This document shows, piece after piece, positions 2,860-21,535 of a DNA stretch of 29,106 nucleotides. A program made the translations under genes and the position numbers. Source of the stretch: an uncultured Gammaproteobacteria bacterium (lineage in GTDB: Bacteria > Patescibacteriota > Patescibacteriia > UBA9934 > UBA11717). The number at the start of each line of letters is the position of its first letter. Within the stretch, counting starts at the first letter, position 1. The notes under the pieces are model-generated. The model was not told the origin of the DNA. It was given only the letters and a program-made list of their open reading frames with translations, and ran no database searches. The DNA lies in NCBI GenBank assembly GCA_964636795.1, contig CAZWSS010000001.1:1-29106 (forward strand), in the 5' to 3' direction.

Positions 2860-2868
2860 TGTGGATAA
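2860..2868 (-). promoter_or_regulatory. Perfect DnaA box
   Basis: TGTGGATAA (reverse complement of TTATCCACA), intergenic, upstream of hup. Confidence 0.55.
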
Positions 2869-5679: not shown

Positions 5680-5688
5680 TGTGGATAA
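5680..5688 (-). promoter_or_regulatory. Perfect DnaA box
   Basis: TGTGGATAA, intergenic. Confidence 0.5.
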
Positions 5689-9708: not shown

Positions 9709-9717
9709 TTATCCACA
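9709..9717 (+). promoter_or_regulatory. Perfect DnaA box
   Basis: TTATCCACA, intergenic. Confidence 0.5.
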
Positions 9718-16649: not shown

Positions 16650-16658
16650 TGTGGATAA
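16650..16658 (-). promoter_or_regulatory. Perfect DnaA box
   Basis: TGTGGATAA, intergenic. Confidence 0.5.
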
Positions 16659-16688: not shown

Positions 16689-17260
16689 GACAGTTCTTGA
16701 GTAACAAAAACAGTAACGGCTCTTTCCAGGTGGCACTGTGTGATGAGCTGGCGTAGCGCTCCAGCCACATCTTTCCGACTCCGCCAGAGGCTATAGTGAA
16801 CAAGGGTAAAGCCGACTGCTTTCAGAAAGGAACGCAGGGCATCCCGCTGCGCATTGCCGTGTACGGGGATATCAAAAGAGACGTAACAGTAAAACCCTTC
16901 CTCGAGCTCGCGTTCTTCGCGCAGGATTTGTTGACGCATGGCTTCCACCTTCCCGGCCTCGGTGAGCATATAGTGGACGCCATCGCTCGTGGCGATCGCC
17001 TCCACCAACCGCCGACGTTTCAGTCGAAGGATCGCCTGCTGCTCCTGCCGCACATACTCACGCAGTTGATCATGCCAGGCGCGGTCTTGCTCGCGCGATA
17101 CGGTGGTAAACGGCCAGCCGCGCACTCCGCGGTAGGTTGCCACGCCTACCGCCAACAACTCCAACAACACGTCTGCCGACACAGTGATTGAGGCAAGACG
17201 GCGCGTAGCTCGCTGCTTGGCGCGCGAACGCTCGTGTTTTGTGAGATGAACTTCCACCAT
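16682..17260 (-). CDS. PaaX-like winged-helix regulator with C-terminal Cas2-like domain (192 aa)
   Basis: wHTH-like AILRLKRRRLV...YMLTEAGK; C-terminal YVSFDIP...RDALRSFLKAVGF...SLW. Start 17260 with TGgTACCAT-6 nt-ATG. Confidence 0.8.
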   Translation of the reverse strand: MVEVHLTKHERSRAKQRATRRLASITVSADVLLELLAVGVATYRGVRGWPFTTVSREQDRAWHDQLREYVRQEQQAILRLKRRRLVEAIATSDGVHYMLTEAGKVEAMRQQILREERELEEGFYCYVSFDIPVHGNAQRDALRSFLKAVGFTLVHYSLWRSRKDVAGALRQLITQCHLERAVTVFVTQELSQ

Positions 17261-17359
17261 GTTCCCATGGTACCAAACGAGACCATTTGGCTGCGTTCTG
17301 TCAAGCCCACACCCGCACTTGTCAACACGCCATCCCCACATGGGAGGCCAAAACGGCTG

Positions 17360-17368
17360 TGCTATAAT
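17360..17368 (+). promoter_or_regulatory. Consensus extended -10 promoter
   Basis: TGcTATAAT, 13 nt before ATG 17382. Confidence 0.7.
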
Positions 17369-17381
17369 CCTCCCATTCGCC

Positions 17382-17972
17382 ATGCCAACCTCCTCCAAAG
17401 AAATCGTCTTGGACATTGAGACCCAAAACACCTTCGAGGAGGTTGGTGGGTGGTTCCATGACCGCCTCCGCATCTCGCTGGTGGGGGCCTATTTTTATGA
17501 GACCGACGAGTATGCCACCTACTTGGAGCCGGATCTTCCCAAGCTCTGGCCGCGCTTGGAGCGCGCCGACCGAATCATCGGCTACAACCAAAAAAGCTTC
17601 GACAACCCGGTCATGAACAACTACTATGCGGGTGATCTCAACCGTCTTCCGCAGCTGGACTTGCTGGAGCAGATCCAGCTCTCGCTGGGCTATCGCGTCA
17701 AACTTGACGACGTGGCGCACGCAACCCTTGGCATGGGCAAGACGGGGCATGGCCTGCAGGCGGTGGAGTTTTGGAAGGAGGGCAAGATCAAAGAATTGGC
17801 GGACTACTGTCTCCAAGATGTTCGGATCACCAAGGAGGTCTATGAGTTTGCGCGGGCAAACGGGCTCGTTCGCTTTCGCGATCGCATGGGAGCCATCCAC
17901 GATGTCCCGCTGGCGATCGAGGGCCCGTCGCGGCAAGCGGTTTCGTCCATCAATCTCACGATGCCGTTCTAG
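17382..17972 (+). CDS. DEDD/RNase H-like 3'-5' exonuclease (YprB-like, 196 aa)
   Basis: VLDIETQ (ExoI), IGYNQKSFD (ExoII) and YCLQDV (ExoIII) motifs. Confidence 0.88.
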   Translation: MPTSSKEIVLDIETQNTFEEVGGWFHDRLRISLVGAYFYETDEYATYLEPDLPKLWPRLERADRIIGYNQKSFDNPVMNNYYAGDLNRLPQLDLLEQIQLSLGYRVKLDDVAHATLGMGKTGHGLQAVEFWKEGKIKELADYCLQDVRITKEVYEFARANGLVRFRDRMGAIHDVPLAIEGPSRQAVSSINLTMPF

Positions 17973-18071
17973 TGGATGGGGGTGCGCGTGGGTGGCGAGA
18001 GCGCTCGCCCTCCGCGCGTGCCGTACTTATCCCCAGTTTGCGGGTTGTGCGACACAACCAGTCACTCCCAA

Positions 18072-18119
18072 ACCCTACATCTTGTGGTATCCTCAAAATT
18101 GGAGCACAAGATATGGGAC
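18072..18119 (+). promoter_or_regulatory. Tandem NrdR boxes overlapping the nrdJ extended -10
   Basis: accCtAcATcTtGtgg (18072-18087) and gcaCaAgATaTgGgac (18104-18119), 32 bp start-to-start; TGgTATCCT at 18085-18093. Confidence 0.8.
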
Positions 18120-18147
18120 TCCTCATAACTTTGCGACTCCTCTCTGT

Positions 18148-18281
18148 GGTCCCCGCTCGCGGGGAAAAGGGACGAACAGTCGCGCCGCTGAATTGAATTT
18201 CGGCAGAGCTCTGATGCGGGATAGGGCTTTGGTGAATTTCAAAGGTTCAAACGGCGAGAGCTGTTTTGTTCCCCTCGGGGA
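18148..18281 (+). ncRNA. Candidate structured cis-regulatory RNA in the nrdJ leader
   Basis: Hand-folded multibranch structure: 18169-18179 pairs with 18261-18272, 18183-18187 with 18252-18256, two inner hairpins each containing TGAATTTC, and flanking CTCG-loop hairpins. Confidence 0.45.
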
Positions 18282-18307
18282 GCCGTAACACATAAACAGA
18301 ACCCTCT

Positions 18308-21300
18308 ATGTCCACCACCTCTCAACGCACACAGGACTTGGCCGCCGGTTCGGCGGATGCGGTCTGGGCTTATATGACCAGTGTGAAGTCCGTCAAAAAA
18401 GCCAAGGGTCATGAGGAGCCATTTTCCAAAGAGAAGTTGTACAGGTCCATCCAGGCCGCCGTGCAAGAGTCGGGGCTCAAGGATGGCTCGGCTCTGCGCT
18501 ACAGTGAGCGCATGACCGGGCAGGTCATGACGCGGCTGAACGTAGTCTACGATGGGGTGGTGGTACCCACCACAGGTGACATGCGTGAGGTGGTCTCCAT
18601 GACCATGATTGACAACAATCTATCGTTTGTGGCGCGTAAGTACATGGGCTACAAGCAAAAGTTGCTCCCCATCCACCGCGATCAGCCCCACTATGGCCAC
18701 GGCATCTCCGTGAGGCGCTATTACACTGCCGTCGGTGTGCATCCTTATAGTCAGATTGAGTGGGGTCGGCGCACGGCGTGGATCAAGGACGAGAAGGGGC
18801 GCGCGATTTTTGAACAGCATGACGTGGAAGTCCCTGCGTTTTGGTCGCAGACAGCTACCAACATTGTGGTCTCCAAGTATTTCAAGGGGAAGGTCGGCGA
18901 TCCCAACCGAGAGACCAGTGCGCGCCAGTTGATTGACCGTGTCGCTCAAACCATCGCCAGCTTTGGTCGCCACGATGGTTACTTCCAGTCGGTCGAGGAC
19001 GCCGATGTCTTTGAAGCCGAGCTCACCCACATCCTCATCAACCAAATGGCGGCCTTCAACAGCCCTGTGTGGTTCAACGTGGGCGTCAACCCGCATCCGC
19101 AGTGCTCGGCCTGCTTCATCAACTCGGTGCAAGACGACATGCGCTCCATCATGAACCTTGCCACCACCGAGTCCATGCTTTTTAAGTACGGCTCGGGCAC
19201 AGGTTCCAATCTCTCCAACCTTCGTGGTTCCTGCGAATACTTGGCCAACTCCAACGGCAAGTCCTCGGGCGTGGTGAGTTTCATGAAGGGTTGGGATAGC
19301 TTTGCGGGTATTGTCAAATCCGGCGGCAAGACGCGCCGTGCAGCCAAGATGGTGATTTTGAATGTGGACCACCCGGATGTGATGGAGTTTATCGAGTGCA
19401 AGATGAAGGAAGAGAAAAAGGCATGGGCGCTCATTGAAGCGGGCTACGATGGGTCGTTCACCGGCGAGGCCTACGGATCGATCTTCTTCCAAAACGCCAA
19501 CAACAGCGTGCGCGTCACGGATGCTTTTATGCGCACGGTAGAGGCAGACGGGGAGTTTTCAACGATCGAACGGCTCACGGGGAAGGTGGCAGAGACCCAT
19601 AAGGCACGCGAGCTCATGCGGCGCATGGCCGAGTGCGCGTGGTGGTGCGGCGACCCGGGGGTGCAGTACCACGATACCGCCAACCGGTGGCATACCTGCA
19701 AGGCCACCGACGAGATCCACGCCTCCAACCCATGCGCCGAGTACATGTTTTTAGACGACACGGCCTGCAACCTCTCCTCCATCAACCTGCTGCGCTTCCG
19801 CACGGGGGAGAACGGCGAACGCTTTGATGTGGAAAGCTTCAAGCAAACCTGTGAGGTGATGATCACGGCCATGGAAATCTTGGTGGGCAACTGCAGCTAT
19901 CCCACGCCCTCGATCGAGCAAAACACCTATGACTACCGCCCGCTCGGGATCGGCTATGCCAACTTGGGCGCACTGCTGATGAGCCGCGGATTGCCATACG
20001 ACTCGGATGCCGGACGAAATTTGGCGGCGGCTATCACATCCTTAATGAGTGGTCACACGTACTACCAAAGCGCCAAGATTGCCGAGAAGATGGGTCCGTT
20101 CGCGGGCTACGAGCGCAACCGTGAGTCATGTTTGGGCGTGATGCGTATGCACCGCGAGGCGTCGTATCAGATTCCCGGGGAAGGGGTGCCGCAAGACCTC
20201 ATGACCGCTGCGCGAGAGAGTTGGGATCACACGGTGGAGCACGGTTCGCGCCATGGACTGCGCAACGCACAGATCAGTGTGCTGGCACCCACGGGCACCA
20301 TCTCGTTTTTGATGGACTGCGCAACAACCGGCGTTGAGCCCGACATTGCGCTCGTCAAGTACAAATGGATGGTGGACGGGGGCATGGAGAAGATGGTCAA
20401 CGGCACGGTGCCCGATGCTCTGCGATTTCTTGGGTATACACAGGGACAGGTTGATGCGATCGTGGCCTCTATCGCTGAACACGATACCATCGAGGGCGCG
20501 CCCGATCTTAAGGCCGAGCATCTCTCTGTGTTTGACTGCGCCTTCAAGGCGGCTAAGGGTACGCGATCCATCCACTACATGGGCCATGTGCGCATGATGG
20601 CGGCGGTGCAGCCGTTCCTCTCGGGAGCCATCTCCAAGACGGTCAACATGCCCGAGAACGCTACGGTGGAGGACATTGAGGAAGTGTTTTTGAAGGGATG
20701 GCACATGGGGTTGAAGGCGATCGCGATTTATCGCGACGGTTCCAAGCGACAGCAACCTGTCACCACCTCGATTGCCCAAAAGGAAAAAGGAGCCAAGGCT
20801 GTGGGGACAGGACTCGACGCTAAAGACGAGCCGGCGGCGGAGGCGATCAAGGAACGGGTGATCATAAAGGAGGTTGCGGCGCCACGACGACGACGCCTCC
20901 CCGACGAGCGACGATCGATCACACATAAGTTCTCGATTGGTGGCCATAAGGGCTACCTCACCGTGGGGCTCTATGACGATGGTACGCCAGGAGAGGTCTT
21001 TGTGATGATGAACAAGGAAGGATCGGTGATTTCCGGGTTGGTCAACGCGCTTGCAGCAACCACCTCCATCGCTTTGCAGTATGGAGTGCCCTTGCAGGCG
21101 TTGGTTAACAAGTTTGCGCACATGCGCTTTGAACCCTCGGGATTTACCAACAACCCTAACATCAAAATTGCCAAGTCCATTGTGGACTATATTTTCCGCT
21201 GGATGGCGCTCAAGTTCTTGGATCCTGTTGCGCAAAAGCAACTTGGTGTTAACCTGGATACGCCCGATCACTTGGCTGAGATCAACGAACGTTCCAAGGA

Positions 21301-21535
21301 AGAGATGGTACTCGATCGCGATCTGCCCGATGCGCCGCAGCCGACGATCTTTGATCAGCCCAAGGTCGCTGCAACAACCGCGGGGTCGTTACCCACACCC
21401 GCCAAAGCGTCCTTGACCTCGACCTTCGACAATCAATCCGACGCGCCCGCTTGCGGCACTTGCGGCTCGATCATGGTTCGCAACGCCGCTTGCTACAAGT
21501 GTTTGAACTGCGGCAGCACGAGCGGGTGTAGTTAG
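18308..21535 (+). CDS. nrdJ: Class II (AdoCbl-dependent) ribonucleotide reductase with N-terminal ATP-cone and C-terminal TSCPD/Zn-ribbon
   Basis: FNSPVWFN, QCSACFI, NPCAEY, APTGTISF, GAISKTVN, YRDGSK and terminal CxxC...CxxC motifs. Confidence 0.95.
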   Translation: MSTTSQRTQDLAAGSADAVWAYMTSVKSVKKAKGHEEPFSKEKLYRSIQAAVQESGLKDGSALRYSERMTGQVMTRLNVVYDGVVVPTTGDMREVVSMTMIDNNLSFVARKYMGYKQKLLPIHRDQPHYGHGISVRRYYTAVGVHPYSQIEWGRRTAWIKDEKGRAIFEQHDVEVPAFWSQTATNIVVSKYFKGKVGDPNRETSARQLIDRVAQTIASFGRHDGYFQSVEDADVFEAELTHILINQMAAFNSPVWFNVGVNPHPQCSACFINSVQDDMRSIMNLATTESMLFKYGSGTGSNLSNLRGSCEYLANSNGKSSGVVSFMKGWDSFAGIVKSGGKTRRAAKMVILNVDHPDVMEFIECKMKEEKKAWALIEAGYDGSFTGEAYGSIFFQNANNSVRVTDAFMRTVEADGEFSTIERLTGKVAETHKARELMRRMAECAWWCGDPGVQYHDTANRWHTCKATDEIHASNPCAEYMFLDDTACNLSSINLLRFRTGENGERFDVESFKQTCEVMITAMEILVGNCSYPTPSIEQNTYDYRPLGIGYANLGALLMSRGLPYDSDAGRNLAAAITSLMSGHTYYQSAKIAEKMGPFAGYERNRESCLGVMRMHREASYQIPGEGVPQDLMTAARESWDHTVEHGSRHGLRNAQISVLAPTGTISFLMDCATTGVEPDIALVKYKWMVDGGMEKMVNGTVPDALRFLGYTQGQVDAIVASIAEHDTIEGAPDLKAEHLSVFDCAFKAAKGTRSIHYMGHVRMMAAVQPFLSGAISKTVNMPENATVEDIEEVFLKGWHMGLKAIAIYRDGSKRQQPVTTSIAQKEKGAKAVGTGLDAKDEPAAEAIKERVIIKEVAAPRRRRLPDERRSITHKFSIGGHKGYLTVGLYDDGTPGEVFVMMNKEGSVISGLVNALAATTSIALQYGVPLQALVNKFAHMRFEPSGFTNNPNIKIAKSIVDYIFRWMALKFLDPVAQKQLGVNLDTPDHLAEINERSKEEMVLDRDLPDAPQPTIFDQPKVAATTAGSLPTPAKASLTSTFDNQSDAPACGTCGSIMVRNAACYKCLNCGSTSGCS

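Follow-up and report, generated by a model that had tools for sequence, protein, structure and literature searches.

The window, the whole stretch of 29,106 nucleotides analysed here, is contig C1 of the 744-kb (0.74-Mb) assembly, 97% complete, of a small uncultured Uhrbacteria bacterium. The nrdJ gene in the window (Table 1) encodes the sole ribonucleotide reductase (RNR) detected in this assembly. PF02867 gave one match, and PF13597, used in the search for further RNRs, gave zero matches across the assembly. The B12 cofactor of NrdJ is expected to be scavenged, not made, by so small a genome. Three related NrdJ proteins (P0037, P0076, and P0087) have 150-350 extra aa with intein or LAGLIDADG Pfam domains (PF14528 and PF14890), indicating that inteins are present in nrdJ of some Patescibacteria.

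The intergenic region ahead of nrdJ spans 17973-18307. Its upstream neighbour, an RNase H-like or PolB-exonuclease-like gene on the same strand as nrdJ, is syntenic at most Uhrbacteria loci, and its C-terminal end is conserved among them. A G+C-rich hairpin at 17974-18032 immediately follows the stop codon of this gene. It has no U-tract, and it gave a miRNA-like Rfam match by chance (E 0.61). It may be a transcript-end or insulating hairpin.

The -10 element of nrdJ lies between two palindrome-like NrdR boxes spaced about 31 bp from each other. In relatives, the -10 position reads TGGTATAAT, TGGTAGAAT or TGGTACAAT. The NrdR box region is the only intergenic part recovered by BLAST in relatives, and it precedes nrdJ at every relative locus checked against NrdJ. 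Box 2 was detected in 29 of 36 distinct related nrdJ upstream regions. The genome also has an nrdR gene (TIGR00244, 177.7 bits, contig C86). Both features of an NrdR-operated RNR promoter, tandem palindromic boxes at an nrd promoter and the nrdR gene, are thus found here, and the arrangement is like that of known NrdR operators, in which tandem 16-bp boxes lie over RNR promoters. The sequence suggests an NrdR-operated extended -10 promoter, whose spacing would place the transcription start near 18101-18103. Given this predicted start, 18103-18307 would be the 5' untranslated leader of the nrdJ mRNA, about 205 nt long. The operators constitute a DNA-level layer upstream of the RNA structure described below, although box 2 itself would be transcribed into the leader.

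Other sequences of the upstream DNA are also shared among relatives. The DnaA-box-like sequence TTATCCCCA is located at 18027-18035, ~50 bp upstream of the -10 element, and a perfect TTATCCACA or its complement occurs at the equivalent place in most relatives. Elsewhere in the window, there are four perfect copies of TTATCCACA, at 2860-2868 (-), 5680-5688 (-), 9709-9717 (+), and 16650-16658 (-). DnaA-like sites with one mismatch at most number 7 in the 29-kb window, against 3.2 expected. The nrd promoters of E. coli are under DnaA control. Between the DnaA-like box and NrdR box 1, at 18041-18058, lies the motif TT-K-Y-GCGACAC, which is conserved in many related nrdJ upstream regions. Its distance from the -10 element is too great for a -35 element, and it may be a site for another regulator. 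In one Uhrbacteria subgroup (L038, L039, L051, L081, and L091), no NrdR box was matched by a simple box-2 pattern. This subgroup shows a promoter of the TTGACA ... TAAAAT type and retains the leader with hairpin and U-tract.

Table 1. Genes and sequence features at the nrdJ locus, in window coordinates; the helices are those of the predicted folds.
Feature	Position	Strand	Description
RNase H-like exonuclease gene	17259-17972	+	Upstream neighbour of nrdJ
NrdR box 1	18073-18088		16-bp palindrome-like operator, read from the sequence; unique within the window
Extended -10 element	18085-18093	+	TG-n-TATCCT; between the two NrdR boxes
NrdR box 2	18104-18119		16-bp palindrome-like; predicted to be transcribed as the 5' end of the leader
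Strand S1	18133-18146	+	Pyrimidine-rich; 18140-46 pairs with 18276-82 (outer helix P0)
Hairpin 1	18151-55/18160-64	+	5 bp, CUCG loop
Closing stem	18169-79/18261-72	+	Terminator-like; 11 bp, one bulged U; purine-rich 5' arm
Helix P2	18183-87/18252-56	+	5 bp; in folds
Helix P3	18189-94/18244-49	+	In folds
Apical hairpin	18195-18241	+	Pb 18195-201/18234-40; Pc 18205-12/18223-30; loop 18213-22 with GCGGGA
C run/G run	18271-18282	+	Small competitor hairpin (18272-80), or end of the long hairpin and 3' half of P0 (18276-82)
Translation start region	18283-18307	+	A/C-rich, no Shine-Dalgarno sequence; predicted open in the closed state
nrdJ	18308-21535	+	1075 aa class II RNR; ATP-cone, class II RNR, and TSCPD domains

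The segment 18133-18282 on the plus strand folds into a single long closed irregular hairpin of -68.5 kcal/mol (z -3.56), and none of 200 shuffled sequences was as stable. The shorter segment 18148-18281, which had been flagged in an earlier reading from the sequence only, gives -59.0 kcal/mol (z -3.64), and the longer segment 18120-18310 gives z -3.18. The reverse complement of 18133-18282 reaches -50.2 kcal/mol (z -2.07), so that the plus strand is 18 kcal/mol more stable. Since the minus strand folds less well, the structure belongs to the sense RNA. The outer helix P0, which is found both in the RNAalifold consensus of the window with its relative L069 and in the minimum free energy (MFE) folds, closes the whole domain and extends it beyond the flagged segment. 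The 3' arm of the closing stem contains a U run at 18264-67 (UUUU-G-UU), and its motif GCUGUUUU recurs in relatives. Positions 18294-99, in the translation start region, are complementary to this 3' arm. In folds of shorter transcripts, 18133-45 pairs alternatively with the 5' arm and its surroundings (18168-83).

Several of these helices had been proposed in the sequence-only reading. Its CCCCG-CUCG-CGGGG hairpin, its 11-bp closing stem, apart from one bulged U, and its 5-bp stem are present in the folds as hairpin 1, the closing stem, and P2. The CCC-CUCG-GGG hairpin is also present, and rivals the closing stem for the same C run as had been suggested. The same reading had drawn two inner hairpins, each with a copy of UGAAUUUC. 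This part has to be redrawn, as the copy at 18195-201 and the copy at 18234-40 are the two strands of Pb. This pairing occurs in every MFE and centroid fold and in the comparative model, and it encloses the single hairpin Pc with its 10-nt loop. The pairing of GCUCU (18208-12) with AGAGC (18257-61), also raised there, is possible in the window. As alternative helices, this pairing and CUUUG:CAAAG were rejected: each is present in the window, and each is weakened by a mismatch in L069.

The leaders of related nrdJ genes have no BLAST-detectable similarity to the leader of the window. By eye, the same apical hairpin was recognised in seven of them. A covariance model of the apical hairpin, R1, was built from an alignment (A2). 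On the 8 distinct copies, R1 gives 47-62 bits for the plus strand versus 20-31 bits for the minus strand. The 47-nt copy in the window (18195-18241) scores 49.1 bits (E 2.5e-10), and its minus strand 20.4 bits. There is one plus-strand match per genome in each of the five hairpin-bearing genomes, and every strong copy sits in an nrdJ leader. Convincing matches were found in five of the nine genomes of the family f1, in the genera g1 and g3. There was no convincing match in 142 other genomes of the order, nor outside g1 in a class-wide sample of 151 genomes. Among the genomes searched, the apical hairpin is therefore limited to two genera of a single Uhrbacteria family; a few metagenome contigs have it as well. 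None of the weaker R1 matches outside the hairpin family lies beside nrdJ, and the best non-nrdJ match is an ordinary A-tract/U-tract terminator hairpin.

In the model-guided alignment, 89.8% of the paired cells can pair, compared with 30-50% for slid partners. Double compensatory changes are observed in 7 of the 16 pairs of Pb and Pc across the 8 copies, and none of 500 shuffles reached the covariation score; this alignment of 8 related sequences was fitted to R1. The covariation evidence for the apical hairpin, coming from eight related sequences, is good but not overwhelming. Covariation among homologous leaders, which had been set as the test in the sequence-only reading, is seen for this hairpin. 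The junction of Pb and Pc is one mismatch, and thus the apical element is a near-continuous 18-bp hairpin; as a two-part stem in R1 it counts 16 bp. A K-turn or loop-E at this junction was considered and rejected on the same ground, a single mismatch between pairs. The conserved apical loop is 10-13 nt long and reads G-n-(U/A)-GCGGGA-(G/A)-U.

The RNAalifold consensus of the window with its closest relative, L069, whose NrdJ N-terminus is 88% identical, contains P0, hairpin 1, the purine/pyrimidine closing stem including the U run, Pb, and Pc. The MFE fold of L069 has a 4-bp and a 5-bp helix of different sequence at the positions of P2 and P3, and at the position of hairpin 1 a hairpin of other sequence occurs both in L069 and in the leaders of g3. 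Because most pairs are identical between the window and L069, the lower helices, which rest on this one close relative, show conservation and not covariation. The comparison with g3 separates the parts of the structure. In L033, a terminator stem of 14 bp, unrelated in sequence and with a U-tract behind it, surrounds the apical hairpin. In L050, L089, and L071, a local terminator hairpin comes immediately after the apical hairpin. All four retain the 3' arm and the U-tract. Thus, the stem and U-tract are always kept, and the apical hairpin acts like a module of its own.

A total of 36 distinct Uhrbacteria nrdJ upstream regions were collected, and 29 leaders were folded. In 28 of the 29, a stem is directly followed by 4-7 U; the exception is L043, whose leader is 25 nt long. 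Purines predominate in the 5' flank, as a G run with an A/G run after it, and a C-rich segment lies past the U-tract. These flanks pair in the MFE folds, so that the hairpin runs through and beyond the U-tract. At least 4 bp link the segment after the U-tract to far upstream sequence in 25 of the 29 leaders. This is different from ordinary terminators, which need no pairing past the U run. The 20 nt that directly precede the AUG are rich in A and C, have no Shine-Dalgarno sequence, and are predicted to be open (mean probability of being unpaired 0.67, versus 0.38 for the rest), more so than the remainder of the leader in 27 of the 29.

Most Uhrbacteria nrdJ leaders lack the apical hairpin, and their length goes down to 85-100 nt. 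Seven short leaders have kept all of the runs (G run, UCCC, G run, U-tract, and UCCC), which allow either one long hairpin or two small hairpins. RNAalifold on their alignment gives the two-hairpin state and single-sequence MFE prediction gives the long hairpin; their helices were not aligned column-wise by MAFFT. The leader of the window is a lineage-specific enlarged form of this uncatalogued set of Uhrbacteria nrdJ leaders, in which the Pb/Pc module and two short helices are inserted within the common stem. With its predicted fold, its strand, its conservation and covariation, and its fixed position before nrdJ all shown by the analysis, the folded region is a real, evolutionarily maintained, uncatalogued structured RNA of narrow distribution.

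The searches against known families were negative. At the gathering score, no Rfam 15 family matches the flagged RNA in the window, and no riboswitch family, the cobalamin and purine models included, matches 17950-18350 at E<=10. The 20 related nrdJ loci gave nothing in Rfam at E<=0.1, and the 7 leaders of the same type gave at E<=10 only chance matches on the NrdR palindromes. A literature search gave no account of a leader RNA before nrdJ in Patescibacteria. Of the suggestions of the sequence-only reading, that of a novel motif agrees with the lack of a match in Rfam 15 and with a core hairpin conserved with compensatory changes.

Its suggestion of a variant cobalamin riboswitch is not supported. 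It had two attractions: nrdJ requires adenosylcobalamin, and short strings in the leader (GGU-hairpin-AAAAGGGA, and GGUGAAUUUC) resemble parts of the cobalamin core. However, RF00174, RF01482, and RF01689 do not give even a weak match; there is none in the leader at E<=10, none in the 20 related loci at E<=0.1, and none in the 7 leaders of the same type at E<=10. RF00174 found nothing in the whole assembly, whereas it was positive in 7 control genomes. No B12 box is apparent in the leader by eye or by models. The strings themselves have another explanation or are not kept. GGUGAAUUUC is the 3' strand of Pb. Relatives have GAUUAUGUG, GAUGAAGUG or GGUGAGUUG at its position, in covariation with the 5' partner. 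AAAAGGGA is not kept in L069 or g3, and other purine runs take its place even in L069, the closest relative. Since no model matches and the look-alike strings either covary as a helix or are not conserved, membership in the cobalamin family fails on the features tested. The leader resembles the cobalamin riboswitches of these three families as a long leader of an RNR gene in a B12-dependent context, but it has no conserved cobalamin core. The known cobalamin riboswitches on RNR operons, such as that of nrdABS in Streptomyces (PMC12528414), switch off B12-independent RNRs, and none is known to act on nrdJ. A divergent cobalamin riboswitch is hardly credible here, and this reading is close to refuted.

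The RNA of the window was also folded from the predicted start to increasing lengths. When the transcript ends at 18263, the alternative fold (-64.7 kcal/mol) and the closing-stem fold (-64.5 kcal/mol) are about equal. When it ends at 18268, the alternative fold stays at -64.7 kcal/mol, versus -67.0 kcal/mol for the closing-stem fold. At full length, the two are near-isoenergetic (-78.3 kcal/mol for the alternative and -79.6 kcal/mol for the closed fold). In the full-length alternative fold, the 3' arm pairs with 18294-18307 beside the AUG, and the small CCCC/GGGG hairpin forms.

With moderate confidence, we propose that the leader is a cis-acting attenuator or conformational switch before the sole RNR gene, whose apical loop would be read by a factor. 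During synthesis, 18133-45 would sequester the 5' arm (18168-83) as long as the 3' arm has yet to be transcribed. Emergence of the 3' arm and the U run would then favour the closing stem, and the polymerase could stop or slow. In full-length RNA, the closed fold, consisting of P0 and the long hairpin, would free the A-rich start region, and the alternative fold would occupy it with the 3' arm. The conserved apical loop would be the likely contact of the factor that sets the balance, and a protein or another RNA is a likelier factor than a small ligand, because it is the terminal loop that is conserved and the position of the hairpin is movable. A constitutive stop is implausible, since no RNR other than nrdJ was found. 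In this proposal we infer the transcription start, the termination, the switching, and the trigger. The predicted layout resembles that of terminator/antiterminator leaders, classical attenuators and riboswitch expression platforms alike: the element lies after the promoter and ahead of the start codon, a U run comes directly after a stem, and upstream and downstream segments could pair in mutually exclusive ways. It differs from them in having no conserved leader peptide, known aptamer, or T-box features, and in base pairing beyond the U run.

Several observations count against the proposal. In the window, the stem has an insert of 75 nt and only a short U run (UUUU-G-UU), compared with 4-7 U after a strong stem in relatives, and a consensus terminator scan gave no site at the closing stem of the window. 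An automated check, which is noisy, recovered no consistent equivalent of the antiterminator-like pairing in relatives. Pairing beyond the U-tract is weak against shuffles (mean z -0.96; 6 of 22 at p<0.05). The family of the apical hairpin is also small, with 8 sequences from two genera and metagenome contigs. Because of the inconsistent recovery of the antiterminator and the weak shuffle test, the switch is put forward here as a hypothesis. Two other mechanisms were considered and rejected. For a leader-peptide attenuator, the ORF is not conserved: it runs across the U-tract in part of the short leaders, is reduced to 2 codons or missing in others, and the window has no start codon where L069 has one. 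For CsrA binding at the many GGA motifs, csrA is absent (PF02599, 97% complete assembly).

The leader might instead act passively after transcription, as a stable 5' domain that shields the mRNA from 5'-end-dependent decay or offers a site for a double-strand RNase, and that separates the folded RNA from the A-rich start region, which has no Shine-Dalgarno sequence; no sensing would be involved. We consider this possible but doubtful; it is the chief alternative to the proposal. The closing helix uses nucleotides past the U-tract, so that the full fold would exist only in read-through RNA, the start region is predicted to be open in 27 of 29 leaders, and the leaders are quickly rebuilt between genera with the general shape retained. 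Among published systems, the closest in function is the long 5' UTR of nrdAB in P. aeruginosa, likewise the long leader of an NrdR-controlled RNR operon, which makes the transcript less abundant and less stable and does not respond to B12 (PMC12528414); it belongs to another RNR class and phylum, and the likeness is one of function. Stability alone, however, does not need a conserved terminal loop of 10-13 nt, the U-tract straight after the stem in nearly all leaders resembles a terminator, and the window has two near-isoenergetic folds. The rapid rebuilding between sister genera would also suit a functionless, fast-evolving spacer with accumulated hairpins, derived from duplicated terminators or a small palindromic insertion and kept by descent in two genera. 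Such an origin is in line with the resemblance of Pc, and of the best non-nrdJ R1 match, to ordinary A-tract/U-tract terminator hairpins, and shared ancestry in a small family would inflate the apparent conservation. We regard a spacer as very unlikely, as 7 of 16 pairs are doubly compensated, the loop is kept across two genera with otherwise unalignable flanks, the same overall architecture is found order-wide, and the single copy per genome does not fit a repeat family.

A new class of small-molecule riboswitch, for a nucleotide (as the sequence-only reading had also suggested), a deoxynucleotide, or a corrinoid for example, with Pb/Pc and its surroundings as the aptamer, would fit a long, covarying, structured leader that precedes a gene for a metabolic enzyme and ends in a terminator-like expression platform. 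Such control of RNR genes has precedents. A 2'-deoxyguanosine riboswitch precedes RNR genes in Mesoplasma florum, and riboswitches of this kind (purine/2'-deoxyguanosine, RF00167 clan) are comparable to the proposal in that RNA controls RNR by a product-related signal. The nrdJ leader differs from them in having no purine-model match and no three-way junction. In Streptomyces, a B12 riboswitch controls nrdABS, according to a passage of PMC12528414 that cites it. The nrdJ leader, however, is conserved in a terminal loop on a near-continuous 18-bp stem and not in a multi-helix junction or an internal pocket, and its hairpin lies within the terminator stem in some species and ahead of it in others. 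The distribution of the hairpin is narrow, with most Uhrbacteria nrdJ leaders lacking it, and rapid rebuilding of the leader between sister genera argues against a small-molecule pocket. A new riboswitch class is therefore quite unlikely. Another idea is that the two-state leader and the conserved apical loop make up a sensor of a new kind, be it a riboswitch or an attenuator that depends on a protein, which as a second layer above NrdR would tie the only RNR to a nucleotide- or cofactor-related signal. We think it unlikely as well. If it were true, the only RNR of host-dependent, B12-scavenging ultra-small bacteria would be coupled to such a signal.

Taken with the predicted folds, these comparisons suggest that the nrdJ leader is most likely a switchable transcription-stop or shielding element. 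It is an uncatalogued cis-regulatory RNA of predicted attenuator type, not a cobalamin riboswitch, and its present value is that of a well-delimited candidate from a small family, not of a solved mechanism. RNR is the single entry to DNA precursors, and nrdJ is the only one found in this 0.74-Mb genome. A conserved RNA layer behind the NrdR operator, if true, would mean two-level control of dNTP supply in minimal bacteria. The order-wide design, consisting of the stem, the U-tract, the flanking complementary runs, and the open A-rich start, would be a tractable case of RNA-based control without Shine-Dalgarno-led initiation at nrdJ.

A (G)ACUCU/ACUCC motif occurs at 18116-18123 and 18135-18140 in the window, and also in L050, L089, L033, L071, and L069. 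It is located ~10-20 nt past NrdR box 2 and is recurrent in leaders with the apical hairpin. A pseudoknot of the GCGGGA loop with this motif, with the CGC/CCC after the U-tract, or with hairpin 1 was rejected, because each fits some sequences and fails others; the loop change from U to C in L071 is uncompensated. In g3, the (G)ACUCU/ACUCC motif is able to pair with a G-rich segment ~40 nt ahead of the AUG.
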